A stretch of DNA of 64,000 nt from positions 19,098,001 through 19,162,000 of the forward strand of contig NC_087250.1 of NCBI RefSeq assembly GCF_037042905.1. The letters are read 5' to 3'. The notes beneath the pieces were generated by a model that was given only the letters and a program-made list of their open reading frames with translations, was not told the origin of the DNA and ran no database searches. Shown piece after piece: positions 10,211 through 61,080 of this stretch. Both the position numbers and the translations under genes were made by a program. The stretch comes from Lytechinus pictus. Its lineage: Eukaryota. Each line of letters starts with the position of its first letter. Within the stretch, counting starts at the first letter, position 1.

Positions 10211-12762
10211 ATATCCATGTACACAAGACTACGTCCTCTTTCTCACACAGGTATGATTGTTACCCAACAGTCTACATAATGCACATCAATATGTTTTGAG
10301 TCAAATATGTTTTGAGTCAAGTATTTTTCAAATTTTATTAACATAAAATGACACACATATATGATAGAAATTGTAACTTTTTTCTACAATAATGATTTTA
10401 ATATACATGTAAAACAAATTAAAATGGCATTTATTTACATGTACAGAAACAACTGAAAATAAATTGGTGATTGATAATCCTAGCCCCATGAGTATGGAAC
10501 AGTTCACAAGCACTTTACAAAAAAGGAAAATAAGCAGTTATCTCTGTTTTAGTGACTGTTACTAAATGTCCGATATATTCTAAAAGTGTGTTGTGCACCT
10601 TTTCATTCAAAGACTAATGATACAGTACTTAGTGTGTGCTGCATTTTCTAAACGATACTACAAAATTAAAAAAAGAAATTTGATCTTCATTTTTTACCAT
10701 AAGCATTGTAATAACAGGTTGCCATTACAGCAAATCCATTTCAAAACACACATGCATGCATAATGTAGGTCGCATGTATGATGTACATTCTAACTCGAGT
10801 GTGTCAATTTAAATTAAAATTGCTTTACAAAGTAATACAAGTTAGTGTACCAACATCTATTACAAAATGCAACATTTCATTCCTATTTTAATATATTCCA
10901 ACTGTACATGTATTTGTCATAACAATGGCAGTGCAACCATATATATTTTTTCTGCATAATCATATCTCATCTGAGAAATATGTCGAAAATAAATGTAATT
11001 ACTTCAAAGAAAAAAAGGAAGGGACAGAGTGCCTGAACTGCATGTCATTTTATCTGCAAAATAGAATGACTGAGGCAAGGCTGACCACCCACCCACCCAT
11101 TTCCCTAAAGATGCATTAAAATTTGGAGAAAAAAAATTATTAACATAAACATATATGAGGGGTGAGCAAGATTTGCAACAAATATGACCAGTCACCACTG
11201 AATACTGGTTTAAATGTATATGTATATCAAGGTTTTGACAAAGGTGAACAGCCATGCAACATTTAAAACCTCCCAACTGGAGCAATTGACCTTGCATTCA
11301 ACAACAACAACAAAAAGCTTTATAAACATAATTTTTCTCACTAAAATGTGTATGCCAGGAGCCAATGTGAAACAAATAATTTTCACAATGTCTTTTTTTA
11401 TATGGTTCCAGACAGTCATGTGTAAATTGACAATTTTTTCTCTCGTAGAAACAAGACAATGCTATTCTGCACTCAAGTGATGGTAGTTTTCTTGACCTTT
11501 AAAAAAATAAAAACTTACATGTACATGCAGCCTTCAACAATATAATGTATCCGTTGTTAAAAGTACAACATGTAGACAAATCCAGAGAGAACACCTTACA
11601 GGTACATGTAGAGTCATTAATCTTTCATAATGCAATGTACATGTACAACCTTTTAATTTTTTTATAAACATTGAACTGCATGCAATGAATGACCTACTCC
11701 CATTGTGTTGCCAAAACCTTCTTTGTCAAATTTGTCATATAAAAACGTAATGCATAAAACAAACATAAGTAAATCTTACATGTACTGCAATACAGAAAAC
11801 AAATTAAAATGAAAGATTATAAGAAAGCTAACGTGGGCATCCTCCAGCTTATAATTTGGAAATTCAAACTGTAAATTTGCCCTTCTGTCAAGTTCTGTGT
11901 ACCGTAAGTTCTTACATGCAAGTACCAGGTAATTTCTTTCACACAATATGTTTTCATATTACAGAATTTAATGTTCTGTGTATTACGAATCAGACAATGG
12001 ATTCAAACTTTAAAAACATGTACATGTATTCTTAAATTACAAAAACTAGACACATGCTCAAACATTATGGTACAGTAGTACATGATGTGAATTCTGCATG
12101 TACAATGTATGAACCGCCATTGTCTCTAAAGCTCTAGATATTCCTGTCTGACCCTAAAATTTTAGAATGAATGCAAGAGTTATATGTACATGTAATTTCA
12201 TTTTTAATCCTGGAAAGGTGTAAAATCACTATTTTGATGTAATTCATTATACAGTATACAAAAATATATATGAAAACTTCAATTACATGTAGACACATTT
12301 ACAATAAAATGAATAGGCATTTGATACAGCAAAGTAGGAAAATAATGTATGGACATACATTATGGGACATTATACTGTACATGTGTACTGCATACTGAAT
12401 CTTTTCAACATGCACTCATTATCAGAGTGAAATCTCATGAGCTAAAAGAATGTTGCTACAAAATGTTTTCAGACTTATATAGCATTTGTTTTGTTCTACA
12501 TACTAGCATTATGTTCAATGATGTGATTTTATTCTTCAAAAAGCTTTAGTTTGTCAGTTTTTAATGCTATTTTCTGAATTACAAAGTGGGAAGAAAAAAA
12601 TCACTTTCAAAGCTCCCATTTGATTCCCAACTTCATCCCATGACAGCTTATCACAAAATTGTCTTAATGTACACATATTAACTGAGAGCAAAAGAAGGCA
12701 GGAGTTTCATTTGGGATATAAGAAGGGTCATATAACTGTATGCTGTAGGCTAGCAAAAAGGT

Positions 12763-14347
12763 TCATATTGCAAAATGTTCTGGTACCATCTGCTGCTCAC
12801 CATCATCACCAATACTAAATCCTGTATAAACACCGTCCGCTGCTGGGTAGATGGAATGAATTTTCAAGACGGCGCAAGATGGTATCACCTTCCTCACACC
12901 CCTTCCCAGAAGACCATGAATCCAATAGGTGAAGAGACGATATGCAGAGTATCTGTAGGATCTGGTGGGGAAAGATGTCCAAAATAGAAAAAATTATTAA
13001 CAAATTGTAGTATTTAAACATTTGTAAAAATAAAAAAAAATTTCTAAAGTGCATTGATTTTCTACAGCACATGATCTTAAGAGACTTCATCTTGGTGAGT
13101 CAGCCCTTGTAATATTTCTTTCATGTTGGTCATGCGTGTAATGTGATTTTGATTGTTTGATTACGCCTACGGTATTCAATTTTGACCTGGTGTGACTACA
13201 GGTGGACTGGACAAATCCCCATCCGGGCTAGCCAGGCGGCTTCTCGAGAGTAAAAATCATTTATTTCCGACATTTCTGCGCCATCGGGCAAGTCTCTTCT
13301 GTCTTGTCATATTTTTCTCATTTTTTTGATGAATTCTTGTTTAAAAATAAAATCGATGGCGCAGAAAGGTCGGAAATGAAGTTGCATCCCATGTATACCC
13401 AGTTGATGTGTGTCCGGACGATCAATTTTAGAAAGTCATTTGGAAAAATTTACAAGGCCAAGGGAAGTTTTATCAATTTTTAGTACAAAATGTCAGGAAA
13501 TATTATAGAGAACAAGAAGATGATTACAACTATTGAATTCATATTTTTAGTGTAATCCAAAGACAAAAAAGAAGGCTTCAAAAATATAAAGTGTCCGGAC
13601 ACCCGACCCCCCATCCTACATGATTTAGGGCTAACGTTAACATTAGATCTTTTAGAAGTAGAAATCTCGGGGGAGAAAGTTTCAGGTTTTGGCGGCCTAC
13701 ATGCACGTGAATGGATAGGAATACCTGGCTTCATTGGGAGTAATCTTACGTCAGTAAATGATTTTTACTCTCTAACACTAACAGTTAGAGGCCGCCTGGC
13801 TAATCCAGACGTCCCCCAATTTATACTGTACTGTACATGTATATGAAAGTCACAAATGATTGAATTGATTGTTGCAATGATTTCTCTGTAGGCCTGTGCA
13901 CCAAACTATTTGGATTTTGGACATAAATGTCAATAAGAATTTTATGCTATCTTACTCATTTTCAAGGATCCTTGGCAAATTGCCTCGGTGACCTCGCTTG
14001 TCCAGGCGGGCAACAAGCGCAGTTCTCAGCACCGCACGCTCCAGGCAAACTTTTGAAAAATCTTCATTATCTATAATACAGTTCACAGACGGAGACAAAA
14101 ATTGGCGGCAGTTTCCTATCTCGTGGCAACATATGCACTCTATTTGCGTTGGCATCACTCTACAATTTCCACAACTGCACCAGTTATCGTTGTCCAGTCT
14201 ATCTGGTGGTGGTGGCGGTGGCTCAACATCGGCTCCGTTATTGTCTCTCTCGCTGCTGCAACCCGTGCGCCGACGTTCCTCTGCTCGTTGAGCAATTTCT
14301 TCGGCCGAGTATTGCGGCTCGAAGTCGTAGGGTCTCGGGCCTTCCAT
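12763..14347 (-). CDS. KolX / P2X7 cytoplasmic ballast (nanor-like) domain protein, 196 aa; exons 14347-13956 and 12961-12763
   Basis: Exon 1 encodes PYDFEP...WCSCGNCRVMPTQIECICCHEI...CII...FSKVCL. The phase-2 donor GA|GTAAG joins acceptor CCAG|A to give ESYRYSAYRLFTYWIHGLLGRGVRKVIPSCAVLKIHSIYPAADGVYTGF...stop. These are the hallmark motifs of the P2X7 ballast/KolX family. Confidence 0.9.
13221..13810. mobile_element. Inverted-repeat element in the KolX intron
   Basis: TAGCCAGGCGGC..GAGAGTAAAAATCATTT at ~13227-13261 is mirrored at ~13756-13802. There is an internal inverted pair at ~13263-13286 / 13354-13377. Confidence 0.55.
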
Positions 14348-15585
14348 TTCACTCAGTACAAACCGTCCGCGATTGCCGCGATAAGTTTAGTTTTATTTAA
14401 AATCAAAGGTAACAAATAATGAAAATGTTAGATAAACAGAAATAAAGCACGATAGTCAATCAGTCAAAACTTCCAACACGATAACTCGGTTCAGCCTTCC
14501 GTACGCGGTGTTTGCAGCTAGCTAGCTAGCTAGCGGTAAGCTTTGTCAAATTGGCCAATTTGAATATCGTAAATAAATGTGTAAAAAAAACTCATCAAAG
14601 CTCATCAATTTGTGTTTTTATACCATAAAATAATTAAAATACCTTATTTATAATATTTTTAAGAGTATTAGATCTATATTTTATTTATTTTTGGTAGAAA
14701 GGTATCTATATTATGCAAACATCGTGGCGGTTTCAACCCGTATAGCTATGCACATTGAAAGTGCTACCGAGACAGTTGTACGTCGATGACGTCACGAATT
14801 TGAACGAACCCCGAAACAATGGCGACCTCCATTCAGAGACTTCGAACCTGAAAAAGCCCAACTTTGAAGAGGTGGTACTCGATACTGGGAAATCGGATTT
14901 GGGTATAACTGGAATCATTTTGATTGTCATGTTCTTATCAATGATACTATGTGGTATTATATTTTGGGTTTCATTCTCCTTTAATTTCGGGTTGAAACCC
15001 TTTTCTGTTTATTTTCATTTTTTTCATCTTTTTTATTTTCTATTTTTGGGGGGCTTGTCAAATTTTATCTCCGGAAAATGTGCCCGCCCCCTTTAAAAAT
15101 CCTGGATTCGCCCCTGCTCTAGAGCTTCTTCACAAGCCAATAGGAGAAACATGAGAAAGGATGCGAGATAATACGTAGGCCTACGGAGTAGACTATACTG
15201 TAATCAAATATAAAAGTCTTACAATGGGCTAAAACAGAAAAAATAAACGATGGATTATGCTTTTACATTTTTATAAATGATAATAAAAGGGGGTATCCAC
15301 CCTTTCACTGCTCGCAACATTTTTTCCCAAACGTCCTATTGCTCCCACCACACTTCAATTCTGGTGTAGGGAGATCTATCTACTGGCCTATATAAATCCA
15401 ATTATTCAATCAGTAACAACATTGATTCTTACTGCATGTATATCAATATATAAAATACTTAAGGGAGTAATAGGGTTTGGGCATTATAGGGTATTAGGGA
15501 AAAATATGGAAGCCAAGAATACGACTTTTCCTTTCTTTATTTGAATTGTATGGTAGCTAAATCTTAGTCTGATATGTTTATAATT

Positions 15586-16338
15586 GTGCGTCCCAGAAAA
15601 AACGAAACTGAGATTTATCGATGATTTATCATAACTTAATCACAAATACAATAGACAAGTGACCTACCATTGTAAAGCTTAGTATCTCCTCCTTTATCTG
15701 GAATTACTTGAATTATTTCTCATTCACGCATGAGTGAGCAAAAACAATTTGAAGAGGGGATACTAAAAAGTCATTTAGCAGGTTGTATCTGGGTTTCAAA
15801 AAAGAAAACCCCATTTTCAAAAAGTTCAATATCTGCTCTTAAACTGATACCTCAATTACAGAAAATGGTCAAGAAATAACAAAGTTCTGGTTATTTGAAA
15901 TAAAGCTTGAATTTCAATAATTTCATAAAATAATGAGGCTTTACAGGCTAGCATTCTGAGTCACTCGAACTTCGTTTTGTTGACGATCAGCCATGCATTA
16001 AAGTCTTTTGTAAACCGTGCGATAGCTTCTTTGGGAAACCGGTGAAAACACGTTTATTTAATGAAATTATGGGAATACAAGCATTGTTTCGAGGGAACAG
16101 AACTCTTTTTATTTCTTGACCATTTTCTGTGATTAAGGTATCAAATAAAAGAGCAGATATTGAACTTTTTAGGCATGTGATTTTCTTTTTGAAATTCAGA
16201 TTACCCCCGTCAAATTAGTTTTTGGTATCCTTTCTTCAAATTGTTTTTGCTCACTCATGCGTGAATTGTCTATTGTATTTGTGATTAAGTTATGATAAAT
16301 CATCGATAAATCTCGGTTTCGTTTTTTGTGGGACGCAG
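15586..16338. mobile_element. Foldback MITE (Tc1/mariner-like ends), same family as 24092-24912
   Basis: GTGCGTCCCAGAAAAAACGAAACTGAGATTT ... AAATCTCGGTTTCGTTTTTTGTGGGACGCA, with inverted arms of several hundred bp; high similarity to the copy at 24092. Confidence 0.85.
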
Positions 16339-16489: not shown

Positions 16490-19400
16490 ATGCAGATAAG
16501 CAATGGGAAAGGATGCGAACATTTCCCCGTGTTTCTTTCGATGATGAATCCGGCTCGGTAAATTTCAATTCGATTTCTATGAATACATATGTTTTCTGAC
16601 GTATTCCCCATTTTTTACATACATTTGCACTGTGTAATTACTTTTTGTACGGTATATAGTAGACTATTCGCGAATTCGGCGTGGACGTAAAGAATTGATC
16701 ATGTCATATAGCAACAGCACATTTCTCAATCTGAAATCTGTGGCAGCAGAGTCGATTTGACAGTCCCATAGGCTCAATACACCAACCTAGAAATGTTCTT
16801 TCCGATGAAGTTTTTTTCTTGATTCGTGTTCCTATGGCGTCCTAGAACAAATTTAGCTTGGTTGCCCAAAGTTGCCGCTTGGGCAATTTTGATAATTTGC
16901 ATGAATTCAAAATTGCCGCCAGATGCCATCTTGAAAAATTGAATTTTGATCCCCTTGCCCAAGAATGCCGAGTAATACCTCTGTTTAGGGGTTTTGGAGT
17001 ATGTAGAATCTCTTTCTGCTTTCTATTTTGCAAGGTAATGTCATCTTCAGGTCAAATCCAAGATGGCCGGCAGATGATGCCATTTTGATAAATTAACTTC
17101 TCAACCCTTTTTCCCAGAATCATGAATAATACCTCTTTTCGTGAGTTATTTGGTATGTTGATTCCATTTCTGTTAATAATTTTGCAATATAGGATCATCT
17201 CCAGATCAATGTGCAAGATGGCCGCTAAACGCCATATTAAAAAAAATACTTCCCGAGACTATTGAACCTTGAAGAAGTACTCTCCCCAATGAGGCTAGTA
17301 TGTATAGGAGCTCAAGTAATGGGATTTCAGTAAGAATTATTCATTTCTTTTAATCACTCCATTTTTAGTTCGAGGTCAAGTCAAATCTAAGACGGTCAGA
17401 TGGTTGATAGATTTCGTCATTAACCGCTCACTTTAGAATGAAAACATTCAAGGTTTGGGCTATGATCTATTTCGGGAGCTTTAATTAATCCTTTTTGTTC
17501 TGTCAAACCATACTTTTCTAGTGAAAGGACTTCAAAGTATTACTTGAATTAAAAAGTGATTTTTCCGTATTTTTTTCCAAAAAATAGTTAACTTACTAAC
17601 TTCTTTTATAATTACCATTGGACTTTTCGTACTGAGCCATTGACTTGGTCAGCAGGAGTGCACTCTTTATAGTCTCCTGCAAAAGTTAGGCTCCCCAAGA
17701 CTGTTCCATGGTCATTTCATTCAATGAGTACACTTTGCTACATCGCTGGAACATCTGGAAGCCTCCCTCAGTTCCTGTGAGCAGTGGCGTGAAGCAAGAA
17801 AGGGTGCGCCTGGCCCTGACACTCTTTGGGATTGCTTCCCCAGTATGCATTTGGCAAATGCAAAGAAGGCTTCTAGGAAACTCTTCAACTTCGACCGACT
17901 AGGTACTAAGCAATGGACAGGATGGTTCCCATTCGTGAGATGTTGTACGGACACGATATCACCCCTGCCTCTCAAGAAGTGGGACTACAAGACCTAGTCA
18001 TATACAGCTACCTGGCCTGTGCATGTAAGGAGTTTGAATCACCCATCAGCCTGTGAGACAGAAATCCTGATCGACTCAAGACACTGATTGTCCTCTAGAT
18101 ACCTCTATCAACAGCATGCAGACGTCTGGTTGTGGTGGACTCCTCACCTACCTATCTGTCTCTAGCTCCCTTTCACTGGACAGGGAGATAAGCACCAGGA
18201 TAGGAAAATCTGTCAGTCATGGCCAAGCTCCTGTACGGAAGTAAGTCCTAGAAAACGTACGCCGACCAAGAAAAGTGGCTTAACACCTTCCATATGTCAT
18301 CTGCGCTTCAAGACAGTGGTTGTGGCATGTTCGCCGCATGAAACCTTGGCGAATCCCTTCTTGAATTTGCCAAGGTAAGGTGAGCTGTGTGATTGGTCTC
18401 ACCCCATCGGTAGATCACACTTCGGTTCAGTGGCGTACCTTGGGTCATGGTATTGGGGGGGGGGCACCAGCAAAAATTTCGAGTCACTTAGTTGCCAGTT
18501 ATACTGACCTAATAAAGATATTTTAAGGACATGCAGTGCCATTAAACGGATATGTATCTCACTGATTAAATAATGCGAGCGCGAAGCGCGAGCTCAAACT
18601 TTTTGATATTCAGAGCTAAAAAGGGACATTATAAGCACATTTTTTGTAATCATGATACGTAACTGTCTCGCTAAACAAACAATGCGAGCGCGTAGCGCAA
18701 ACTAAAATTTTTGTATATATTGACCCTAAACAGGGACATCTTAAGGACTATATTTCCGAATCCATTAAGAGTATAAATATCTCACCATAGTCATCTAATG
18801 CAAGTGCCATCCTTTGCTATCATACGCATCTTACTAATCAAATACTGCAAGCGCGAAGCGCGAGCTGAAAATTTAGGAAATTCAGACCTGAAGGGGGGCA
18901 TTCTAAGGCTTGTTTGTAGGAATTCACTATTAAAGACCCTACGTATTTTACTAACCAAATGATGCGAGCGCGAAGCGCGAGCTGAAAATTTTTGATATTC
19001 AGATCAGAAAAATTGACATTTTAAGGACTGATTATAGGAGTTCATGAAGAGCAGAAATCTCACCAATCCACTAATGCGAACGTAAGCACGGACAGGCAAT
19101 GTTTTATATTAAAACCTTAAAATAGAGCAATCACTTTAAGTAGTCATGAAAAAATAAATGTCACTACATAAAACAATAATAACTGGAATTGCGAGGAAAT
19201 ATATTTGGTGTATATTTATTTGAAAACGGGAGGTTTTAGTACAACAGGATTATATATCTCGTTAAACAGTCTATGCGAGCACCAGGAACAATGAAGACAC
19301 AATGAAGGAAATTATGTTTCATAAAGTTATGAAAGAAATGCTTCTTATATAACATAACATAATATAACATTGTTATGAACAATAATTTTCTTTCTTTTTT

Positions 19401-22400
19401 TTTTGGGGGGGGGCGGCCGATGGGGGGGGGGCACGTGCCCCCATGCCCCCCCCCCCCCCCCCGCAGTTACGCCACTGCCTCTGTTACAGAGACACATACA
19501 AACGTGACATAAAACTCGCCGGCATATACACTAACACTTTTGGAGATGTAGATGATAGTCGCAATTCCATGGAAAGCTACTAAGTGCAGGTGTCAAGACA
19601 TCAGAAAATAGTCGGAATGCTAGATTGGCAGACCAAAGACCTAGCAGGAAAGCTAGGGCAGCATCTCTATCTAAACCTGTCTCAGCGCCATCCTCCTTTA
19701 TCTGTAAAAATTTGCTCTAGAGACTGCCACTCTAAAGCGGAGCTCTACAGTCACTCACGAAAATGTAAGACTTAGCGCTACACCATCGTCTTTTAAGGCG
19801 AATTGAAACCTACCAATCATTGGACACATTGATTAAAAAAAAAAATATTGAGAAAACACTTAAAATAAGACTCTAAGCCTCTTCAGTACAAAAGTATGGA
19901 TGGACAGTAAAACAAATAAAAATACATGCGAAATGTATCATAGCCCAAACCTAAAGAGGATTTATCCTAAGGTGAGCAGTTAATGTCGAAATCTGACATC
20001 TCAGATGTGACTCCATCTTGACCTAAAACTTACTGAAATCCGTTTACATTAGCTCTTACACGTATAAGCCTCGGAGAGTTTTTTTTTCAAGATGGCGGTT
20101 TGCGGCCATCGTAGATTTGATCTGAAGATTATCCTTTATGCAAAATTACAATATTAATTGAATCAACATACCAAATGACTCACGAATAGAATTATTATTC
20201 ATGATTCTAGGACAAAGGGTTCAAAAGTTTATATTTCAAGATGGCGTCATCTGGCGGCCATCTTGGATTTGACCTGAAGATGACATTATATTGCAAAATA
20301 GATAGCAGAAATGGATTCTACACATCCCAAAACCCCGAAACAAAGGTATTACTCATTATTCTGGGGCAAGGGGATCAACTCTAATTTTTCAAGTTGGCAT
20401 CTGGCGGCCATATTGGATTTGACCTGAAGATGACCTTATATTGCAAAAATGATAACAGAAATCGATTCTACACCCCTCTAAACCCCTATAAAGAGTCATT
20501 ACTCATCATTTTGGGGAAAGGGGTTCAAAAGTTAGGTTTTCAAGATGGCATCTGGCGGCCATTTTGGATTTATGCAAATTAGCAAAATCGCCCAAACGGC
20601 AACTTTGGGCAACCAAGCTGAATTTGTTCTGGGACCCCAAAGGAACACGAATCAGGAAAAAAACTTCATCTGAAAGAACATTTCTAGGTTCGGAAAATGT
20701 CAAATCGACTAACATCTACGTCCGCGAACAAGACGGTCAAGATATTAGGACGCACCGCCAGTGTTCCATACCATGAAAGTTGATATGCCAGGCATACTCG
20801 ATACATGCCTCGTCCTGTTTCACTCTACCAACTGAAGGGGAAGGTGGGGGTAAGTTGAGCCATTGTTTGCCTTTTTCCTGATAGAAGTTATATGATTCAT
20901 AATCTTGTGGAAATAAGCACCTTGACTTAGATTTTTGGGAAACACCTTTATACCTACATATAACATTCTACCACCACACTGAAAGTCGCTGTCACCTTTG
21001 GAAAAAAAATACTTGGCTCAAGTTGCCCTACCCATGGGATAAGTTGAGCCACCTTCTGGAGTAAGTTGAGCCACAAGAAGTCAGAACTATGTACAAAAGG
21101 TATGGGACAAGAACCAGCATGACAATTTTTTACTTGGCTCAACCTACCCCAGTCCAAACTTAGTGTGATATTTTCACATCCACATATTCCTTAGGCATCC
21201 ATCATGCAAAAGACTAAAACAAGAATGAGGATCCATACCTGGACTAACAATATTGTTATTATGCCTTCACTATACTTAAAGATGCATATGGGTAAAGCGC
21301 TTATCTATTTCACCCACTTTTGGGGGGGGGCTGAAATTTATATTTTTTCCTCTGAAATTTTTTTATTTTTTGTTTCAACGTTGAAAACAATATGGTGGGG
21401 TTAGGGAGTTATGCAATGGGTCATCAATATATGACACCACTCATTATCGGCCTGGGGGTGGTGGCCTAACTTAAAGTAACCCCGCCTTCCCCTACTGTGA
21501 ACATAGAGCAGGCTTTATGACGTAACTCCGTATTGATCAGTCCACTAGTGGAGTAACAAATGGAAAAGTAGCTGTTTGTTTTTTGCTTTACACCCGATTT
21601 TCATCTTGCCTGTAATAATTCTTGACTCTAATCAGGATAGCAATTAATGAGCAACGTCCTATTATAGTCACTATTTCAATTATGGGCAAAAACTCGAATG
21701 GAGAATATTCAATTGGGCAAGTTAATATTCCAAAAATATTTTTTATTCCAAAATACCTAGGCTCGCATATCATGCCGTACTTTTACAAACATGACACAGA
21801 AGCGAATCTATGAGGTTTTTCGTCATTTCTACGTTTACGATGCTTTTGTGAGAGACGTGCAGACTGGGACACGAGCGATGTTGCAGTCAAGCTTTTCTCG
21901 GGAAGAGGGTCTCCAGCGAGTGACAAAAGCTTTGATTGACAGGCTCATATCTACCGGACAGATGACAGGTACTAAAATTGTATTGTTCTATTTATCATTT
22001 AGAATTTAGCCCTATACCAAATGCAGACGGCCAATTATGCCTCTTCAAATTCAATCCGACCAAAGACAAAATAAAAAAAAACTGCTCGGTAGCGACCACC
22101 TTTGGCTCTTTTCTCCCTGTTTTGATCTTAAAATATGTTTTCTTGACATAAATCTATATTTTTATGTTTGTTCTTCCATCATAATTTTCCTATCTGGAGA
22201 ATTTTTTTGTAGTACGCGTTTTTCTCCTGTTCTTTATTTCATGTCCCTTTTGCTAAAACCTCGGTAGGCCTATCCCCCGTACCACACGCGGAAAGGACTG
22301 AGAGTGGGGTCGTAAGTTATTGCAGAAACTTATTTTTTTTATTTTGTTTCGATAGTAATTTTTGTTTGCATTTGAAAACAATTGCAAGATAAATTTATGG

Positions 22401-25400
22401 ACCAATGAAAAATTATCTGAAATATATAAACAGAAATAAATATATATATCTCTTAATCGGTAGAATCATCATCATGCTTGGTGCCCGCTTACTCATCCCC
22501 TCTCCTGCTCATCCAAGGAGCTTGCCCGCCAGAACTTGGAATCAAGTGCGACACAGTATGCGAGTTTGCTTGCAGTGACAGCAGCTACACATTGGTGGGG
22601 AGTTCTACAATAAGATGCCAGCCAAACGGAACTCTTTCGGATAAATTTCCCCATTGTAAAGGTGCGTGTGTGTTAGCTTGATCAATTAAGTACACTCTTA
22701 TAATAGTTGGGCAAAAAATGCCCAACTCTTTAATAACCCTGGGCAACATACTGTCCACACTAGTATTTTTAGAGCTAAATTTCCCTTGGTGGGTACAGAG
22801 GCTCGCTTATAGCGAGGGCTATTTCATATTAGACGTTGACAGAGGGGTTGACTTCCTGATTTCCTCAGCCAGTGTTCACTGGGTTGAGTTCGGGGTCCGT
22901 TCGGGGTCCGTGGGAACAATTGCTCTCTCAAATGTTAGCTTGGGGAAAGAAATATTTTTTATATCGACGTCCAATCCCGTCCAATCTGGACTAGGCCATG
23001 GTCTTGAAGGGATGCAGTGCCAAGGTCGTTGAGACTCCAAATTCTAGTCTTTCGGATCCTAAAGCCCTACTGTTTTAGAGAACCAACTTTAAAGCACACT
23101 GAATGTTTTGATGAAAAACGTATTTGTTTTCCCTTTCAAAAACGCAAGTTATCACACATTCCAATTCCAAATGAGTGAACTTAACCGATCAGAAATTTAT
23201 TTGGGTTCATCCATCCTCTCCGTCATTGTAGGCCAATGCTCTATCGGAGACAAATCCTCAAGATTAGATCTAATGTCCGATAATTTCCATTCTTTGATTT
23301 CCTCATTATTTCATTAAACAGCAAATGAGGAACATACCACACAGGTCACCACGACAAAGACAACATCTACTCCACATCATGTTGTACACACCACTTTACC
23401 ATCCACGACAACAAATACACATTCCACCCCGAGGAGATTTACCACAAGAACGGCGCAACCTGAAAATGGCACTACACCGGGAAGTCGCACAGGTCATACC
23501 ACACCATCGACAACAGGAATGCCTTCGACGACTGGTTCATCAACTACCTCCGAAGATATTAGTACAACCACACGTTCTCCTACAAAGAAGGACCCAACGT
23601 CAAAGGCGGTACCTACCATGTCTACCAAGGCGGATAGACCTACAGACAAGAGTTCTTCTACTGTGTCTTCTACAAGTTCTGTTCCTGGCTTGCCCCATAG
23701 TAAGTTCTGCGATGTTCGGAAACAGACAAATTCTCGACCTGTTTTTCATCCTATGTTTCTTCCCCCCGACGCATAATGCAAGGTATATGCCCCCCTTCCT
23801 CCCAAAATCCTGGATCCGCCCCGTCTCCATCACAATCTCACCTCCTAAAAACAATTTTGCCTACAGATCTTAAAAAATGCTGAGTGAATACATATTTCAC
23901 ATAAATATCTCGGGTGGTATTCTGAGATCTATTTTATCTTAGAAGAAAATATTTATTCTCCGTTAAAATAAGTGAGATAAATACCCTTAAAATCTCTCCG
24001 AATTTGTATTCTAAAAACCATTTGATCTTCATTTTATCTCTGTAAGACACCTATTTTTGAAGCAATATCCAATGAGAAATGCGGTTTTATACAGTGCGTC
24101 CCACAAAAAACGAAACCGAGATTTATCGATGATTTATCATAACTTAGTCACAAATACAATGGACAAATGACCCACCATTGTAAAGCTTAGAATTTCCTCT
24201 TTCATCTGAAAGTACGAAGATTATTTCTAATTCACGCATGAGTGAGCAAAAACAATTTGAAGAGGGGATACCAAAAAGTCATTTGGCGGGCTATATCTGA
24301 GTTTCAAAAAGAAAACCACATTTTCAAATAGTTCAATATCTGCTCTTTAATTTGATACCTCAATTACAGAAAATGGTCAAGAAATAACAAAGTTCTGGTT
24401 ATTTGAAATAAGGCTTGAATTTCAATAATTTCATAAAAATTAAGAGGTTCTCCAGGCTAGCGTTCAAACTCACTTGACACTCCGTTTTGTTGACGATCAG
24501 CCATGCATTAAGTCTTTTGTAAACCATGCGTAAGCTTCTGTGGGAAACCGGTGAAAACACGTTTATTTAATGAAATTATGGAAATGCAAGCATTGTTTCG
24601 AGGGAACATAACTATTTTACTTCTTGACCATTTTTTATGATTAAGGTATCAAATAAAAAAGCAGGTATTGAACTTTTTAGGCATGTGATTTTATTTTTGA
24701 AATTCAGATACCACACGCCAAATGAGATTTTGGTATCCTTTCTTAAAATTGTTTTTGCTCACTCATGCGTGAATAGGGAATAATCTAAGTAATATCAGAT
24801 GAAAGAAGAGGTTCTAAGCTTTACATTGGTAGGTCATTTGTCTATTGTATTTGTGATTAAGTTATGATATATCCTCGCTTAAACTCGGTTTCGTTTTTTC
24901 TGGGACGCACTGTATAGCTCTCTCATCTCATTCAACCAATGAAAATCCATTCCTTTATCAAAATGCCATTTCGACATTTTGATGGGTGTCACGTGACGTA
25001 TTGCATGAGGAATCTGCTGCGATATTACGATTCGTGACAGGTGACGTAATGTATCGTCATGTGTCAGAAAGCTGTGGTAGTAATGGACGGTCAACACATA
25101 ATGCCACATTCTGCAACAATGATAATTTGATCGTTGGCGTTGCATTGCCGGTAGTAGCAGAACCTCTCAATGCAAAGGTTTCTTAATATACAACTGGTTT
25201 AAATTTCTTGCCTGTATTTATGTAATAACAATATGTTCCTTTGAATAGCGCAGCTACTATAATTGCATATACTCTACTGAGCTTGATACTTGGTATCATA
25301 TCATTTACCCCGGCTGTAGCTGAGGCGCCGTATTGTCGCTAAAGCATTCAAGGAATAAATCCTACCGGGTACCATTCACCTCACCTGGATTGAGTGCAGC

Positions 25401-28400
25401 ACAATGTGGGTATAACTAAATTTCTTGCAGAAGGAAAACACGCCATGGCTGGGATTCGAACCCACGTCTCTCTGATTGAAAGACGAGAGTCGTAACCACT
25501 CGAACACGACGCCCTCACATTTTTTTTTAATGCAAGCTTAAATAAATGTCACGCGTACTAGTATTTGAAATTAGGGTGATATGATATCATCATAACCGTT
25601 AAACGTGTATTGTAGCCGGGTTTTTTTTTCTTCATTTCAACCGACAACAACTACAACAACAACTACAACAACTAAAGCACCCGCCACCACTAAAAAAATT
25701 ACTTCGATCAATGTCGTTTCGTTTTTCTTTTAGGATTCAGTTCGTTGGCATTCATTGGTTTATCGGGAGTTCCTCTACTTCTTCTGCCAGTGATTTTCGC
25801 TATATACAAATTAGTTTACAGACACCGCAGGAAAAAGGTAACCGTACAATACATTTTGAATAATTTTCCTTTAAAATAACTATATCCCCCCCTTCTCGCT
25901 CGAAACTGATATTTTTGGTCTAACGCATTAAATTACAGTAATAACGAATGCATGCGTTGTATATGATCAGGTCCACTTATTCCAATATGTATATGTTTGA
26001 TGAAAGTATCATACTAAATAATTAGGGCTTTGATTACTGTGCAAAGAATACATGAACTGTGCTCTCAAACTTATTTTTGGGATGTGGCAATTGTAGCATT
26101 TTGGTTTTGAACATAAATGATGAAGATTATAGTATTATCAGTAATGTATTTGCCGAAAGTAATGAACTTTTTCGTCCCTTCCTCTTATTTTTTTCTTCCA
26201 GATATACACATTCCCAAACCCCAACCCTAAAACAGAACACGAAACATTGGATATCCTCCTAGTTTTGAGTAAATGGTTTCTTTTTTTTTTCTTACGATAA
26301 TTACAGAACACGATAATGAAACCGATTACTGTTAATAATGTTAATGCTTAGTACAATTTCCACCTTTATTTGCAGTATTTGATACTTGATGAAACTTCGG
26401 GGGAAGATGATTTAGATGGTGAGTACATCGATGTAAAAAAAAAATGGATATAGCAACAACGCACTCCTTGAGGCCACCGGAAACGCTAAAAAAGTATGAT
26501 GGTGGTCCCAAAGTCTGCGCACCTAACGATTTTAGTTAAGATTTAAATTAATTTCTTTTTATTTCACAAAATCTATCAGTTGATAATGTTTCTTGTATTA
26601 TTATGAGTGTGCCAAATATAAAAAAATTGAAAGAAAAATATGATTTTCTTGGAAAAAAAAACCTCGGGCAGTCATTTTCAGACTGAACAAAAAAAATGGT
26701 GCCCTATGACTACACACCCATTCACTTTGTACGCCCCTCGGGGATTTTGATTAGAAAGGCTGCATTTTGAGACTGTCAAATGTACATGAAATGCCCCCGG
26801 TTCATTATTTTCCACCATTTTGAGTCGGAGTTTTTTAAAATTAATATCTGTACTGCATGTGTATAGTGTTCGTTGCGTATCTTCTTTTATTAGAATTACG
26901 CATATGCACAAAACAAGGGGGACTGCGCAGACTTGGGGGAACTCGCCAGAATAAAAAAAAAGGTGAAGCGCGCACAAAGTTCCACACTTTTCGCTTCCAT
27001 GTGCATGTTTTTTTTTTCATTATTAGCGTTGGCATGGTCCTATATACTGTTGATCGTTCAAGATTGTGTGTGCACAACGAGCTCTATCCATTTTTTTTTA
27101 AATCAATGGGTAACATTATCTTCTCGCTCTCACATACCACGAAGGTACGAAGGCTAATGGTTCATTTATTTCACTGCTCACTTACGACGGACTTGAATTG
27201 AGTTTAATTGAACTGGTTTATTAAAACCAACACAAAGAGGCAGCTCTCAGGCTGAATAACAAAATCAGGAGAAATTCTATAATTATGAAAAGGTAAGACA
27301 CAAATCATGAAGCAGGTTACTTAAAAATTATATCTAAAAATTGATAAAATGCAAAATGGTAATGAAATAAGATAATAAATGAATAATTAGTCGGGGTTTT
27401 TTTTATAAGAGTTTGATATCAAAATACAGAAACAAAAAAATGGAGCGAATCCAACAATAATATATAGATATACAATCCAAAAAGTGTATGATCAGTTAAT
27501 ACCTAAATCAGTGTAATTGATTTAGATAAATAATAAAGAAACCGTTGAAAAGATTAAATTGGATCCCAATTGGAGCTCAATTTTAAAAAAATGCGGTTCT
27601 ACTTAATACTCCAATACTTCATTTTTTAAAAGAAAATAGTCCTGTAATCCTTCCATTATCACCATACTGTAGGACCCATATAACAGAGCATAAAATCCAG
27701 TATGTCGTAATTTGAGTAATATTTTTAGTACATGTAGTAATACTAGGACATACAGAGTATTAGGCCATGTGTGTCTTTCCCTCTCTCCCTTCCTCTCTCT
27801 GTCTATCTCTCTCTCTCACACACACACTTACATTTTCTCGACCTTGCTCTTTCTCACACACACACACACACATACATTTAATTCTATTTTTTTGTCGTGT
27901 CTTGTTCACACAGACGTTCCATTTGATTGCGATGGATCCTATACCGCCCAAGAAATCAAGCAAGCCATCCTGACAGATATGTCTATAGAACTGAACCGGA
28001 AAATGGTAATTGCTTTTATTTTGTATCAGATGTTTCTATCCTGTTCTCTTATTATTATTATTATTATTGTACTTCTTCTGCTAGTTCTTCTCCTTCTCCT
28101 TATTCTATTATTTTTTTTCATTATTATCATCTTTACGATCATCATTACTATTCTTCTTCTCTTCATCCTTCTTCTTCTCCTTCTTCTCCTTCCCCTTCTT
28201 CTTCTTCTTCATCTTCCCGGGGGGGGGGGGAATACTTGTCTTGTTTCCAATACTTGTTAAGGGTGCATTTTCAGAATATGGAAAATATGTGTTTAGTGTG
28301 CTTTTCGAGACCCCGTGGTCGCGCATGGTATCCACTCGTCAATGGAAGTGGCCCCCCGGGCTTCTTCCCCTTCTTCTTCCCCATCCTCCACCACTGAGGT

Positions 28401-31400
28401 CGGAGATCAGTAGCAGGGTGATGATGCATGAAGGGGTGCCCATCAGCAATCAATATATGGCATTTCATGGCATTAATCTATGAAATTGTGGTTTTATTAA
28501 TGACAACCTGTATGACTGTATGGCATTTTGGATACAATGATTGGACCTGAAGTGACATTATAGTCCTTATTCTGAAGTCGGGTTTAACTTAAACTCGGGT
28601 TTAAAAATGTGGTTTAAGTATGGATAGACAACTGTTACATAAATTACTAACAGTAGAGATATCATATTTCAGCTCACTTGGCTCTCAACTCTCAAGTTAT
28701 TCATAATTGTCCAGGAAGTATACATAGATGATTATCTTCACCATTGAAGAATCAGGAAAGAGCACAGTAAATGTAAGAAATATACAACTTAATAAAATTT
28801 TTGAGATATTGGCTTCCCATTATTTTATCATAGAGTTAGACCATGGTTTAAGTTCACCCTGTCTTCAGGATACGGGCCATTGCGCCCATTTAGAGAAAGA
28901 GCGGATATTATTGATGCAATGTTAAGAAAAATAAATGAAGGGCTGGGTCTCAAATGTGTGTTTGAAATTGGTTGCACGTAGAGTTGTGTATGGAGTTTCG
29001 GTTTAATTATTTCTGAAGTGGGGCCCTGACTGACAAAGCTAGATACTAATTGTAAAGATGAAATTAAAGGGATGGTCCAGGCTGGAGATATTTATATATC
29101 AATAAATAGAGTAAAATTCACAGAAAAATTGATCAAAATCGATAACAAATAACGAAGTTATTGAATTTTAAAGATATGCATTATTCAGGTGAAACAGTTC
29201 TAGGCAGGTCTTCATGCATGTTCATTAGGTGGGCTGATGATGTCATATCCCCACTTGTTCTTTTGCATTTTATTATATGAAATTTTTCTACCAAGAACTA
29301 AAACAATTGGATTGACAACTGATTAAATGCATTAGTTATTTATTTCCGCGACTAATTTCATCATAATGGAGACATATCATTTACACATGTATGAAAAAAT
29401 GAAACAATTATGATTTCATGTAATAACATAATAAAAAAGAAAGTGATGTGACATCATTAGCACACCTAATGAAAATTTATGACGATGTGCATATAATTGT
29501 TTTCACAAAATATTGATAAACTTAAAATTCAATAACTTTGCTAGTTGTTATCTGATTTTGATTAAATTTTCAGCATTTTGCTTTGTGAATTCTATTCTAT
29601 TTATTTAGATATAATTATTTTCAGCCCGGACCATCCCTCTAAAATGTCGAAAACGCATTGCACACGGTAATAGAAAATAGGTGTCAAAATATAACAGATT
29701 ATGTTAGGTGATTGTTTGTAATTTCTGTGGTTTATTTGATGATTTTTTTCAACTTCTGGTACCTTCTGGTCTCTTATTACATCATACTATCTTTTAGTGC
29801 TACGCCATGGACAAACCAGACAAGGGAGTTGCTTTCATCTTGAACAACTACATATTTGATACCTACAGAGCGAATGAAAGGAAGGGATCTGATATTGATT
29901 TGATCAACGTGAGGCATGTCTTTAAGGAGATTGGATATGCCCCTGAAGAAGCTCAAAATCTAACTGCTGAGGTAATACTTTTTGCCTATGAACTATGTGA
30001 ATATTGAAGTACCCTCCCCCCCTCCCCCATTAAGTTATAATTGCTGATCCTATAGACACACTTTCTTACATCTTACGTACAACACGCTCCTGCGACCTCA
30101 GTGACCCACACACGTTACTTTGTGAATTCATCCAAATTAGCAAAATCCACACCCACACGAACACACTAACCATTAGACACATAGCTTATCCCTTCCAGTA
30201 TGTGTACCCCACGCCCTCACTCAACACACTCACATCCACGCTGACCCTAGAAAACACAGATTTGTATCTATTCAGCATGCGCACTTCACACCCACACACA
30301 CCCACTAACCCTACAAGAAACACAGATGTTGTATTTATAACAGCATGTATACGCGTACCCCACACCCTCACCCACACACAACCAATTACCCTTAGAAACA
30401 CAGAATTGTATCTATTTCAGAATGTGCACCCATATTGTCACACTCACGCTGACCCTAGGAAACACAGACATATGTATCTATTCTAGCATGTGCACCCCAC
30501 GCCCTCACCCACACACACCCACTCACCCTAAGAAACGCAGACCTGTGTCCATTCCAGCATGCACATCTAACACCCTGACCACAAGACACACTGGATTGCA
30601 TATACTAGTATCCATTCCCATACAGCATGCACATCCCACACAAACACACACACCCTCCCTCTTTCAACACACCCCGCTGACCCTTCTCTGTGTTTTACTC
30701 ACCCACCCTAATCAGGTTAAGAACAAAGAGAGAGAGAGGGGGAGGGGAAAAGTGGTTGGGAGGGGAGGCAACAACATATGTACATGCATATTTATATATC
30801 TTTTCATTTCTCGTTTACCGTGTATCCTTATCCCGATCTAGAGAAGAGGTGTTATGTAGAAAATTTGGATATTATCTAAATAAACCATGGAGGTAAAAAA
30901 TTTAGGTAAATGAGTATTAACCTTGTCAATATGCATTTTTGTCTCCCCTGTATCAAACACGCCGAAGTTCTTAATCGTCTTAAATAAGATATATAAGAGT
31001 GCGTCCCACAATAATGATAGATTTAACAATTATTAAATATATTGTTTACTATAAATTTGATACTCATGGCAAAATTGGAATCTCATCCCGAATTTGAAAC
31101 CAACAGCCAAGCACATCGTTCACGCATGTCAGATTACAAACAATAAAAAAATATTGACGCTTATTAGAAACGATCTGCGCAGAAACTTACGTGTATATCT
31201 TAATCCACTCTCATTTCAGGGATCGTCGAACAAGCACGGTCGTCGTATCTTGAAGAAAGATAATTGAATTATATGATTATGTAAATAAAATATCATGATT
31301 TATTTGCCTTCGAAGAAAAAAAGACATGGGTAATCCCGGTTTTCTTTTTTTCTGAGACGCACTGTATACATACATACCCACACCAACACATGTATATATA

Positions 31401-34400
31401 TGTATATATATATATATATATACATATATGTGTGTGAGGGTGTGTGTGTGTGTGTGTGAGTGTGCGTGGGTGTGTGTGTATATAAAATTTGAAATACAAA
31501 ATATACTGAATGTTTGATGTGAATGTCTTAAGGGTCTGTGGCTGATTCGCCAAAGGAGAATTTGATATTAACCTCTATATCTTCTTGTCATTTTTTTCAA
31601 AGGAAATAAGAATGGAGCTAAATAGCTTAAAACAGAAAATCCTGCCCTCCCACACCTCAGTCGTCTTGGTCTTCATGAGCCATGGGGTTCCAGAGGGCAT
31701 TCTTGGTACTGACCAGAAGGTCGTAACCGTCGAGGAAATCAAGAACATGTTCTCGGGGAACAACTGTCAAGCCTTGATCGGAAAACCAAAGATCATGTTC
31801 TTTCAGGCCTGCAGAGGAGGTAATTATGCAAGAAAGGGCCCATGCCCACCCCCTTCCCCCTATAAAAAAAAAATGTTGTATTTCCCCCTGCAATAATGCA
31901 AACATTTCATATACTTCATAGGATGTGAATTCATCGTATCAATTTATTTCGATTCAGTGGAGCCTTATCATAAAAAATTATATCTTTATATTTCATATTA
32001 TAAAATACAAAGAGTCTGTATGTGATATCGGCTCCCTTGTTCATGTCATTTGCATACTGACCTAGATGTGTACATATAACTGCTTTGTAAAATTAAGTGA
32101 AACTACAAAAATGGCTCACCTTTCTGACCTTAACATCAGCTTTTGGGGGGTTTTCAGTTACATGCTTACCTCTCGTTTTCCCCTATTTGTTCAAATCATC
32201 TTATTGTTTATGGACTTATAGCTTTTATAAGAGTTTGGAGACAGGGAACAAATTTGATGGGTAAATCGATAATATTGAACCTATTATTCAATTTTAACCA
32301 ATCATATATCTTATATGTGCATGTGAAAGCAATTGCCACCAACCATGGACCTGTACGACCACACACCATCAAACCGAGGACGTTAATTTCGTAATACGTG
32401 GACAGTACTCAATTCTGTAGACACTCTAAATGCTTCAAATCCAATTCAGAGGGCGCTACAGCACTGTAAAATAGTAAATTGTATTCTCCCCTATCATACC
32501 CGGATGCAACTCACAAGTGTCCACTCTTGTAAGAGTGTGTGTCCCCGCTTTCCTACGTTATGGCAGGGAGCCTGTTGTACCTTTTCGTCTTTCTTTACAG
32601 ATAAAGTTACTCCATGTGCTTCCTCGAATAACACACCCCCTGAAGCAGGGACCGAGAAGTGCGATGGCATCGTGAGCACTGATGGGTTAACACGTGGTGG
32701 AAGAGTTGCACTGGCCACAGACGATGTGGAAAGTTTGAAACCAGATGGGTCCATGGACAAACCATCACCTGGTAACATCAAAAGAAGTGAGGTGGATACG
32801 GACGGTGGGGTACCAGATAATGCCGATGTCTACATTGCTCATGCTACTTCAGAAGGTAAGCGCAGTGGTTTATTCTCATTTGGTCCAATGTCAATTCGTC
32901 GAATATCCACATGGTCTAATTGCCATTTCGTCTAATAGCCAGTTGGTCCAATATCCATTCAATCTGTACACCATTTGGTCTAATTAGACTTAATGTTAAT
33001 TGTGCAAAATGAATGAAAATAAAATGGATATTAGACTAACTGGTTACGAGACGAAATGGTCATAGACGAACTGGTGACTCGACGAAGTGATGATTTGACA
33101 GTGGACGAATTGGCAATTTACCAGCGTGGTAAGGGAGAATAGAAAGAGAGGAAGAGAGTGGAGTTTCTATATAGTTTGGCTCTTACCAAGCTTACGAAAG
33201 AGTGGACCTCCCAAGGCTTGTGTGGGATTGTAAAGATATGTGTGAGAGATAGAGGGAGGGGGTAGAGAAATATGGTGTATCAGTTAGGGGCGGCGGCCAG
33301 GGGGCACTAGGATTTGGATGGGTAAGCGTGTACGTGTTGCCCCAAAAATATGAAACCACACCCTTGACAACGGACGTTGGGGGCTCTTTGGCCCACTGCA
33401 AATGGGGCGTTTGAGAACTGGAATTTAACATGAAATGAGGGTCTTTAGAACTGACGACTGAAATGAGCGGCTAAAGAACGGGATGGTCAATGAAAAGTGA
33501 TGAAAAATTATATGCTTGGGAACTTCTAGCTAGCAAGGCGTTAAAAGGGGGTCTTAATTGTAAAAAAATACTGTCGCTATACGTCAGTGCCGCCCCCTCC
33601 CCCCCCCCCCGAGGCCCACGGGTGAGATGAGTGATAGGTCTTGTGTGGGGGTCGTAAAGATATGTGGGAGAGGAGGAGGTAGAGAAAGATGGTTTGTATG
33701 TTAGGGGGAAGGACGTGAGTAGACATGTGTGTTACGGTGGGCATGATCGGTGTGCCATACTGATTTTTCTATATATTTATAGTTAACAAAATTATATTGC
33801 AAAGTGAGGCCCAGAGAGTATTAATTTGAGAGGTGCAGCCAGGAAATAATTACACACAGGAACACATTCATGATGATATGACGTAGAAGATGAGCTCACT
33901 AGGTGAAAGGAGAGGGGGAGGGGGCTAATGGAGCATTCCAAGCAGTGGCGGATAAAAGTAGAGGCACATTCCCGGACCGTGCCCCTACCCATTTTGTGAG
34001 GCATACATAATATTTCTTTTTGTCGAATATGTCGTGTCTACGCAAGTGGGGACATTCCTTCTTTTCTTTTTTTTTTGCTTGTCAAACTTTTCCTGAAACA
34101 AAATGACCTGCATTTTGGAGTGAAAACATTCTATTATTTTTTTGTTTGTAAAAAAAAAATCCCTTCCATAAATCACCATTAATTGGCGGTGAAGACCTTT
34201 TTGAGGGGACTTATTATATTTCGTAAAAAATCCCCCAACTTTTTAAAACCTTTGGTCCCCCCCCCTCATTATTTTAAACTTAATCACAATCTTTGAATTA
34301 ATTGCTAAATTTACAATTGATTGCTCGTCTACTACTTGCGACAAGTATAAATTGATTTGTTTTCGTTACGATTTACGTATAACTTTTATATTTTCAATTG

Positions 34401-35546
34401 ACGGTGTGAGAGGAGGCAGACAGAGAGGGTTGGTAAAAAGAAACACTACAAAAAGGGAAGGACAAAAGAACGTTTAAGTTAATGAATGCCATCGTATCTC
34501 TTATGTAATGACATAAGCTCAGAACCCCGTCTTACGAAGAGTTGCGATTGATCTGATCAATCTTACCTCAATAGAAATCCATCAATGTCATAATTTTTTT
34601 TATACAGAAAATATGCACAATGTATTTTTGGAAACAAAGGCCACGCTTAACGATTAAGAAAACAATAAAAGTATGAAATATACATCATATCTAAATATAC
34701 ATATATTTTGAACAAACATGAATTTTAGTTGTTGACGTTACTGGCTTTCCATAGTTGTGGCTGATCGGATCAATCGTAAGTCTTTGTAAGACATGGTCCT
34801 GGTTAACTTTGCAAAATGTTCTTCGATTGGCAGGCTATTTCTCGCTACGTGACAAGCAAAACGGATCGTGGTTCATCCAAGCCCTTTGTGAGGAGTTAAT
34901 CGCTAGTGCGCATGCCCATCATCTTGATGACATCATGATGAATGTGAGATGTCTGTCAATATTTTGTCTCCTTTTATTAAACCTATATTTTGGGTCTATT
35001 TCTATAATAATCATAATTGATAATAAATATATCTGCTTTTTACTTTATCAGAAGTCTCTAAGTGCTCTCAAGTAATGCAGCAGAACAATGATCACGTATG
35101 GCGTTATATTTTATTTTTTAATCAATAAAGAGCGGTTCTTTTGTGGAAAAATATATGAAAATGGGTAGTTTGAAATTTCGAAACCCGTTTGCACTGTATA
35201 TTATTTGTCGTAGAGACTATCACATTATTTGTAAGGTTTGCATTAAAACAGATCTTTATTTTTAAGATGCTGAATAAACGTAATAAAATAAACTCATTCT
35301 GGATGAAAGGTGAAAAAGAGATACTTAAATGAATAATACAAATATCTTTATAAAATATGATGCATGCAGGTAACAGATAGAGTAAAGCAACACGAAGCTA
35401 ATATTGTGGTAAGAGGAAAACGAAGACTCACTCTACAGACCCCGCAGATTGTCAAACAAGGAATAGGAAAGAAGATCTACTTCTTACCAAAATATCAACC
35501 GGTGCACCGACGATCCAAGGCCACTGAACTTAAGTCTCATTTGTGA
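16490..35546 (+). CDS. Predicted single-pass membrane caspase (N-terminal domain - sushi/CCP - mucin stalk - TM - caspase p20/p10), 5'-partial, ~674 aa
   Basis: Exons with start-end phases: 16490-16557 (1-0), 21761-21968 (0-1), 22464-22661 (1-1), 23322-23699 (1-1), 25734-25837 (1-0), 26376-26418 (0-1), 27914-28005 (1-0), 29798-29971 (0-0), 31603-31819 (0-1), 32601-32855 (1-1), 34834-34943 (1-0), 35370-35546 (0-stop). All junctions are AG/GT, all phases are compatible, and there are no internal stops. The start/signal-peptide exon was not found. Confidence 0.72.
17670..19815 (+). pseudogene. Decayed RTE-clade non-LTR retrotransposon RT fragment, split by a MITE
   Basis: Frameshifted remnants VSSGVKQ.RVRLALTLFGI and a C-terminal C..C.RDCHSKAELYSHSRKC, typical of RTE/BovB-like ORFs; many stops. 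Confidence 0.65.
18428..19477. mobile_element. hAT-like non-autonomous element
   Basis: TIRs CAGTGGCGTA.C / GTTACGCCACTG; 8 bp flanks CTTCGGTT / CCTCTGTT (6/8 match, degenerate TSD); internal GCGAGCGCGAAGCGCGAGCT repeats. Confidence 0.75.
20846..21151. mobile_element. Small MITE
   Basis: GGGGTAAGTTGAGCCA ... TGGCTCAACCTACCCC, with internal AAGTTGAGCCA copies. Confidence 0.55.
22464..22661 (+). CDS. Sushi/CCP (complement control protein) domain exon
   Basis: Encodes C...CDTVCEFACSDSSYTLVGSSTIRCQPNGTLSDKFPHCK, the CCP pattern with Leu in place of the usual Trp; symmetric phase 1-1 exon. Confidence 0.85.
23322..23699 (+). CDS. Thr/Ser/Pro-rich mucin-like stalk exon
   Basis: 126 open codons (NEEHTTQVTTTKTTSTP...STVSSTSSVPGLPH), bounded by ACAG| and |GTAAGT, phase 1-1. 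Confidence 0.8.
23912..25190 (-). mobile_element. Partial PIF/Harbinger-like MITE related to 48007-48816, interrupted by a foldback MITE; right boundary approximate
   Basis: 23912-24090 and 24913-24955 match the reverse complement of ~48595-48816. Confidence 0.65.
24092..24912. mobile_element. Foldback MITE with CAGTG termini (Tc1/mariner-like)
   Basis: TA|CAGTGCGTCCCACAAAAAACGAAACCGAG ... CTCGGTTTCGTTTTTTCTGGGACGCACTG|TA, with long inverted arms. Confidence 0.9.
25240..25514 (-). mobile_element. tRNA-derived SINE
   Basis: The - strand head GGGCGTCGTGTTCGAGTGGTTACGACTCTCGTCTTTCAATCAGAGAGACGTGGGTTCGAATCCCAGCCATGGCG has Pol III A and B boxes and is followed by a non-tRNA body. Confidence 0.7.
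25734..25837 (+). CDS. Transmembrane exon with basic stop-transfer sequence
   Basis: Encodes FSSLAFIGLSGVPLLLLPVIFAIYKLVYRHRRKK; strong acceptor TTTTTCTTTTAG| and donor AAG|GTAACC. Too short to appear in the ORF track. Confidence 0.8.
28040..28215. repeat. (ATT)n/(CTT)n low-complexity microsatellite
   Basis: Direct reading of the sequence. Confidence 0.9.
28562..28878. mobile_element. MITE (Harbinger-like ends)
   Basis: GTCCTTATTCTGAAGTCGGGTTTAACTTAAAC ... GTTTAAGTTCACCCTGTCTTCAGGATACGGGCC inverted ends. Confidence 0.6.
29068..29638. mobile_element. Kolobok/T2-type MITE
   Basis: TTAA|AGGGATGGTCCAGGCTG ... CAGCCCGGACCATCCCT|CTAA (TTAA TSD with one mismatch). Confidence 0.8.
29798..35546 (+). 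CDS. Caspase (peptidase C14A) catalytic domain, five exons
   Basis: Motifs YAMDKPDKGVAFILNN, RKGSDID, FMSHG (catalytic His), GKPKIMFFQACRG (catalytic Cys), ADVYIAHATSEGYFSLRDKQNGSWFIQALC, QTPQ and KKIYF. Confidence 0.95.
30998..31364. mobile_element. Degenerate short relative of the CAGTGCGTCCCA MITE family
   Basis: GAGTGCGTCCCACAA at ~30998 and TGAGACGCACTGTA at ~31352-31365. Confidence 0.5.
34522..34799. mobile_element. MITE
   Basis: CCCCGTCTTACGAAGAGTTGCGATTGATC ... GATCAATCGTAAGTCTTTGTAAGACATGG inverted ends. Confidence 0.65.
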
Positions 35547-60831: not shown

Positions 60832-60870
60832 TCTTCGACCTAAGGGGATGCCAAATTGTTCTCGAATCTA

Positions 60871-61080
60871 TTATTATTATTTTATTCGGCATTTCAACAA
60901 AAACAGTTTACAATCAATTAACAAGAGAATATACAATTACAAGTGAAAAGGGATGTTTACAGAACAAGTCCAGGTTGCCTGGAAAAGGAAAAAGTTAAAC
61001 AAATTACTGTAGCCCGCAGGCTTTCCTCCCCGACCTGGACTTGTATGTTAACACCCCAAGAATAAAAACATATATATCTA
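60871..61080 (-). mobile_element. Short retroposon 3' end with (AAT)n tail inserted in the macrosatellite
   Basis: Interrupts the unit GTTCTCGAATTTATGTTGGT seen intact at ~57261; flanked by ATCTA/ATCTA. Confidence 0.55.

Follow-up and report, generated by a model that had tools for sequence, protein, structure and literature searches.

Animal caspases normally receive signals from outside the cell through separate death receptors and adaptors, and the mammalian caspases that bind lipopolysaccharide (LPS) are cytosolic. Anti-lipopolysaccharide factors (ALFs) are defined by two cysteines around a 20-residue hairpin (17 residues in scygonadin) and by a four-stranded sheet that carries three helices, and are described as limited to chelicerates and crustaceans (accessible text of PMC6213531). 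We analysed a 64,000-nucleotide stretch of Lytechinus pictus DNA (contig NC_087250.1; hereafter the window) that carries the gene LOC129262862, whose single product combines a predicted outer head, stalk and membrane span with an intact caspase. Such an arrangement would short-cut the death-receptor route, with the head as the part deciding what the protein senses. The conserved orphan head on this unusual caspase is real. [quoted passage not shown]

We observed that the 12 exons, when joined, gave a single reading frame in which 666 of 666 residues were identical to L. pictus XP_063957181.1. The domain order of this frame is head, sushi, mucin-like stalk, transmembrane helix and intact caspase, and the splice sites were canonical at all 12 exons, none being broken. 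The exons are listed below.

16490..16557, plus strand: first part of the head; AG/GT, phase 1 in; candidate Trp-containing helix and candidate first strand
21761..21968, plus strand: main part of the head; AG/GT, phase 0 in; in frame with the exon above
22464..22661, plus strand: sushi/CCP domain (Pfam PF00084, E 8.6e-06); seven Cys, against six in the six-Cys type
23322..23699, plus strand: mucin-like stalk; 128 residues, Ser plus Thr 46%
25734..25837, plus strand: predicted transmembrane helix (Kyte-Doolittle 19-mer peak 2.38, residue 282), then a basic stop-transfer cluster
26376..26418, plus strand: juxtamembrane exon with YxxL and an acidic cluster (both in 6/6 proteins)
27914..28005, plus strand: linker with D-x-D-G (6/6 proteins), a candidate caspase release site
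29798..29971, plus strand: start of the caspase large subunit (Pfam PF00656)
31603..31819, plus strand: catalytic core of the caspase; intact SHG and QACRG
32601..32855, plus strand: intersubunit linker; several Asp-Gly sites
34834..34943, plus strand: caspase small subunit; GYFSLR and GSWFI
35370..35546, plus strand: final coding exon with stop codon (exon model)

A sequence-only reading of this DNA had proposed that the first two exons form an N-terminal ectodomain related to ALFs. The two exons do encode a head at the N-terminus, which continues in frame into the sushi domain, stalk, transmembrane helix and caspase, and the peptide that had been quoted for exon 21761-21968 was recovered exactly, between canonical splice sites. 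This exon encodes the lone invariant Cys, an amphipathic stretch and a predicted beta-beta-alpha core ending in Gly-x-Met-Thr. The splicing of the head exons to the sushi exon, on which the proposal depended, was borne out by RefSeq models in three species and by the full-length match to XP_063957181.1. It is from these models and the reading frame that we draw the head-to-sushi join, as neither the joint 16557-21761 nor the joint 21968-22464 was among the RNA pieces and joints listed. Transcripts were seen further along the gene: in RNA run X1, contig 3 splices the sushi exon to the stalk exon, and contig 4 runs from the stalk exon into two caspase exons, bridging 29798-29971, with 241 intervening letters that by letter count correspond to the three exons lying in between and an insertion of 3 bases. 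A 119-nt X1 contig also lies at 21835-21953, within the main head exon. Contigs 3 and 4 deviate from the window by a few letters, and they may stem from a sister species or from the close paralog introduced below.

The 5' end of the gene requires separate consideration. The RefSeq protein begins at a Met at 16513, inside exon 16490-16557, and the frame is open upstream of this Met. This exon corresponds to residues 64-86 of a 95%-identical paralog (P0005) that bears a signal peptide, while the first 63 residues of that paralog, the signal peptide region, had no match in the 64-kb window; the window copy has either lost its signal exon or carries it further upstream, outside the window. Two open reading frames were evaluated as the missing first exon and rejected: 12754-12987 is antisense to a spliced minus-strand transcript, and 14746-15096 is unlike the N-terminus of any relative, neither showing a link to the gene. 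The latter frame (plus strand) encodes a hydrophilic stretch and a transmembrane-like segment, adjoins the 5' end of the minus-strand gene and has no Pfam match.

These features would also suit a tandem duplicate whose signal-peptide exon was lost or cut off, giving a protein that is mis-targeted, cytosol-facing or non-functional. The unmatched residues 1-63, the internal start Met, the Kolobok-like transposon directly upstream and exon reads near zero in three 2026 RNA runs (about 6% sampled) would fit such a defective copy. However, all 12 of its exons are intact with canonical splice sites, the signal exon may sit before the start of the window, and RefSeq isoforms beginning at the same Met are also annotated for the paralog and for the L. 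variegatus gene. We regard a defective copy as unlikely.

The protease itself is intact. The caspase domain matched Pfam PF00656 at E 1.7e-48, with the His-Cys dyad in SHG and QACRG, the S1 arginines and GSWFI, and the nearest solved structures among the best 60 of 217 were caspase-3 (E 5e-30) and caspase-6 (E 4e-26). With these C14A caspases it shares SHG, QACRG and GSWFI; in contrast to them, it has a transmembrane helix, stalk, sushi domain and head ahead of the protease instead of a short prodomain, a long intersubunit linker, and SLR in place of SWR. The sequence-only reading had suggested an extracellular analogue of caspase-4/5/11. This holds as a functional likeness at most, given that the protease is nearest caspase-3/6. 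What would be common to the urchin protein and the LPS-binding caspases (human caspase-4/5, mouse caspase-11 and sea cucumber AjCASPX2) is a proposed sensor and a protease in one chain. In the latter, the LPS-binding part is a CARD or the protease domain (accessible text of PMC11121444), whereas the Pfam scan of the urchin protein gave no CARD and its binding is only proposed.

To place the head among relatives, several searches were made; these were word-seeded or over very large libraries, so that remote relatives would escape. A homolog search with the main head exon returned three Lytechinus proteins among 7 candidates, and in further searches 6 of 490 and 1 of 100 candidates were kept, all of them from Lytechinus or Strongylocentrotus. 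A phmmer search of 1.84 billion representatives gave six matches, two being the Lytechinus proteins; the other four were dropped as repeat artefacts (one simple repeat and three PD40 propellers). Two ESM Atlas searches gave no usable match, PDB sequence searches gave 0 rows and 5 rows at chance level, and no related loci were found in metagenome, viral or prokaryote contigs. In these searches the head was found in L. pictus, L. variegatus and S. purpuratus only. It belongs to membrane proteins of 666-737 residues, and the same architecture with a signal-peptide-like N-terminus was seen in P0005, in S. purpuratus P0006 and in a more distant Lytechinus pair (P0007/P0015). Across distant pairs, identity was 45-58% in the head and 32-37% in the stalk, compared with 75-77% in the sushi domain and 71-80% in the caspase large subunit. 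Six basic positions are conserved in the head, and both its lone Cys and the seventh Cys of the sushi domain are invariant. A further L. variegatus record, P0001 (XP_041467263.1), has 163 residues comprising only head and sushi, without stalk, transmembrane helix or caspase; it may be a decoy or a soluble version of the protein, or else result from an annotation that was split.

We compared the head by eye with the ALF-D1 sequence of PMC3701609. As in ALFs and scygonadins (ALFPm3, PDB 2JOB), there are about 100 residues, predicted outside the cell, with one Cys comparably placed. The alignment runs without a gap from the Cys2 position as far as the closing Gly-x-x-Thr, with a basic residue at +15, Gly 19 on and Thr 3 later, so that the ALF spacing claimed earlier for the C-terminal helix stands. 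The motif from which that claim was made had 1 match in 32,666 six-frame window positions and 0 in 200,000 shuffles of the exon peptide; it was, however, written from the window sequence itself, and its rarity speaks for the specificity of the pattern and not for ALF identity. The full motif was present in 4 of 8 proteins, all of the window's own orthologue group, and failed in two S. purpuratus records and two distant Lytechinus paralogs, the motif Arg and Lys being absent in 4 of the 8. A form keeping only the spacing was found in 9 of 9 proteins and in 303 of 200,000 shuffles, a match of low information that alone is not significant. Identities to ALF-D1 numbered 8 of 46, with P of 0.005-0.02 for a single register and 0.2-0.6 over 50 registers.

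Several other features differed from those of ALFs. The window head has one Cys, as had been noted, and the position equivalent to Cys2 is Asp in 6/6 proteins, which leaves no two-Cys disulfide. The distance from the lone Cys to this position is 26 residues in 6/6 proteins, against 20 in ALF and 17 in scygonadin. The stretch equivalent to the hairpin had been called beta-hairpin-like, with a Cys and a basic/aromatic character. The single Cys and the basic/aromatic character were observed, with a net charge of +2 to +3, while the hairpin itself is doubtful, as the second half of the stretch is amphipathic-helix-like (hydrophobic moment 0.74 for helix versus 0.19 for strand). A sushi Cys follows the Gly of the head by 8 residues, leaving no room for the third helix of ALF. 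ALFs are moreover secreted free peptides, whereas the urchin head belongs to a membrane protein, and the window copy shows no signal peptide. No ALF family was listed in Pfam scans with E up to 1 or 10, in which the HMMER filters discard weak matches. As judged from sequence, the head falls outside ALF as the family is defined, and the membership proposed earlier is not supported, the two-Cys hairpin being absent; the head is possibly ALF-derived. In S. purpuratus P0006, residues 78-117 contain three extra Cys, of which one lies 20 residues past the conserved Cys, an arrangement seen in P0006 alone; this is near the 21 of ALF, yet its register differs from that of the C-terminal match.

We also evaluated the LPS site, which in ALF-B1 numbering consists of E21, K22, K31, K35, K46, R48 and R58 (accessible text of PMC3701609). 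By offset mapping in a by-eye register, 2 of these 7 charges are kept in 6/6 proteins; an invariant Asp lies at the K46 position, and one conserved basic residue lies one place off R58. The shrimp group D ALF also has 2 of 7 charges, and its LPS binding is 20-fold weaker (same accessible text); the lipid A site of ALF is itself unproven according to the available portion of PMC10131219. The LPS binding proposed for the head is not supported, with 2 of 7 charges kept and a motif Arg and Lys that are not conserved.

That the head is a divergent ALF with retained binding to LPS, or to some other polymer of microbial surfaces, is in our view quite unlikely; the protein would then be a pattern-recognition caspase of the cell surface or phagosome. 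The missing second Cys, the 26-residue spacing, the site charges with the Asp at K46, the helix-like and modestly charged hairpin equivalent, the absent third helix and the identity P over 50 registers all weigh against it, as does the near-absent expression of the S. purpuratus relative in adult coelomocytes that were not bacterially challenged. Consistent with it are the gap-free alignment with its identities, a succession of elements (a Trp helix, then a strand, the Cys strand, two more strands and a helix) that could match ALF, and the LPS binding of sea cucumber caspases (accessible text of PMC11121444). In its fullest form, an ALF-derived head without the disulfide would bind bacterial surfaces outside the cell or in the phagosome and directly switch on the tethered caspase, as a one-chain surface LPS sensor-protease; this too appears distinctly improbable. 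If the head does descend from ALF, the family would not be arthropod-only and would have been reused as a caspase sensor.

The expression data come from a supplement of PMC13043383, which covers 29 libraries of adult coelomocytes: the S. purpuratus relative reached 27 raw counts in a single library and 0-7 in the other 28. These libraries were unchallenged or treated with ultraviolet B, with no bacterial challenge, at a depth given as 50 million reads in the accessible text. Such counts fit poorly with a constitutive coelomocyte sensor, and the gene may be expressed in epithelia, larvae or induced states. None of the gene ids was present in the supplements of PMC11688612 and PMC13736523.

The fold of the head was predicted with two models of low confidence (pLDDT 52.7 and 48.8), in which no more than two or three strands and the final helix are resolved. 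Foldseek with these poor models gave no match at E 0.001. dsRBDs dominated the fold-search listings of both models at middling scores, and the ALF structure 2JOB was not among the roughly 50 matches listed for each of five fold searches, where its presence in the library and its rank were unchecked. In CATH, ALF belongs to the dsRBD topology, and matches of dsRBD type are therefore compatible with descent from an ALF. The core of the head is predicted to be beta-beta-alpha, dsRBD-like with ALF-like spacing.

The same listings, with the six conserved basic positions and the YxxL sorting motif, would suit a module of dsRBD type whose ligand is double-stranded RNA outside the cell or in endosomes, or some other polyanion, making the protein an antiviral sensor-caspase. 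RNA-binding dsRBDs have an alpha-beta-beta-beta-alpha fold and the RNA-contact motifs GPxH and KKxAE. Both motifs were absent from the head alignment and there was no dsRBD Pfam match. The members of this fold that were listed (the dsRBDs of MLE/DHX9, Loqs, TRBP and DRB4, and release-factor domain 3) have no sequence match to the head and are intracellular, unlike the predicted outward-facing urchin head. We consider such an RNA sensor very unlikely.

Returning to a ligand-binding or clustering head, we infer a type I topology from the signal peptides of the paralogs and from the basic cluster after the transmembrane helix (5 Lys/Arg within 10 residues). Clustering of heads by a ligand would bring the caspase zymogens close and activate them by proximity, as initiator caspases work. 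The zymogens would then self-cleave in the intersubunit linker, and the protease could be freed from the membrane at the conserved D-x-D-G of the juxtamembrane linker. Together, YxxL and the acidic cluster may direct the protein to endosomes, in which case lumenal contents may be what the head samples. A bond between the lone head Cys and the extra, seventh sushi Cys is possible; a complex prediction of head and sushi scored 0.00, which is neither for nor against contact. Our best guess for the ligand, from the six conserved basic positions, is an anionic surface or a partner protein. If the head does not descend from ALF, it would still be a small, expressible orphan domain whose ligand could be sought by direct screening in a sea urchin that is amenable to genetics.

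The head has no Pfam family, and no paper on it appeared among the literature listings searched. Neither an echinoderm caspase that spans the membrane nor an ALF from an urchin was the subject of any paper in those listings, or was described in the accessible text of PMC3196919, PMC11463336, PMC13736523 and PMC13673367; the 2006 S. purpuratus apoptosis survey and the ALF sequence table in the supplement of PMC6213531 may bear on novelty.

Further features of the window were noted around the gene. A Kolobok (Kol0)-like transposon lies just upstream of the first caspase-gene exon found, at window positions 1964-4048 (+) and 14496-12700 (-); its termini were looked for and none was found. It has a 694-codon transposase-like open reading frame with weak MULE/ISL3 Pfam matches, convergent with a spliced KolX/P2RX7_C gene (PF20478, E 6.8e-05) whose intron 12962-13955 is spliced in RNA runs X1 and X12; the Kolobok family is described in PMC9587614. 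Two copies, 90% alike, of a palindromic element resembling miniature inverted-repeat transposable elements lie at 15586-16337 and 24088-24919, in the introns or upstream region of the caspase gene. On the 3' side, reverse-transcriptase-like open reading frame fragments (by eye) and a long G-skewed repeat region were observed at 35862-39313 and 50000-64000.
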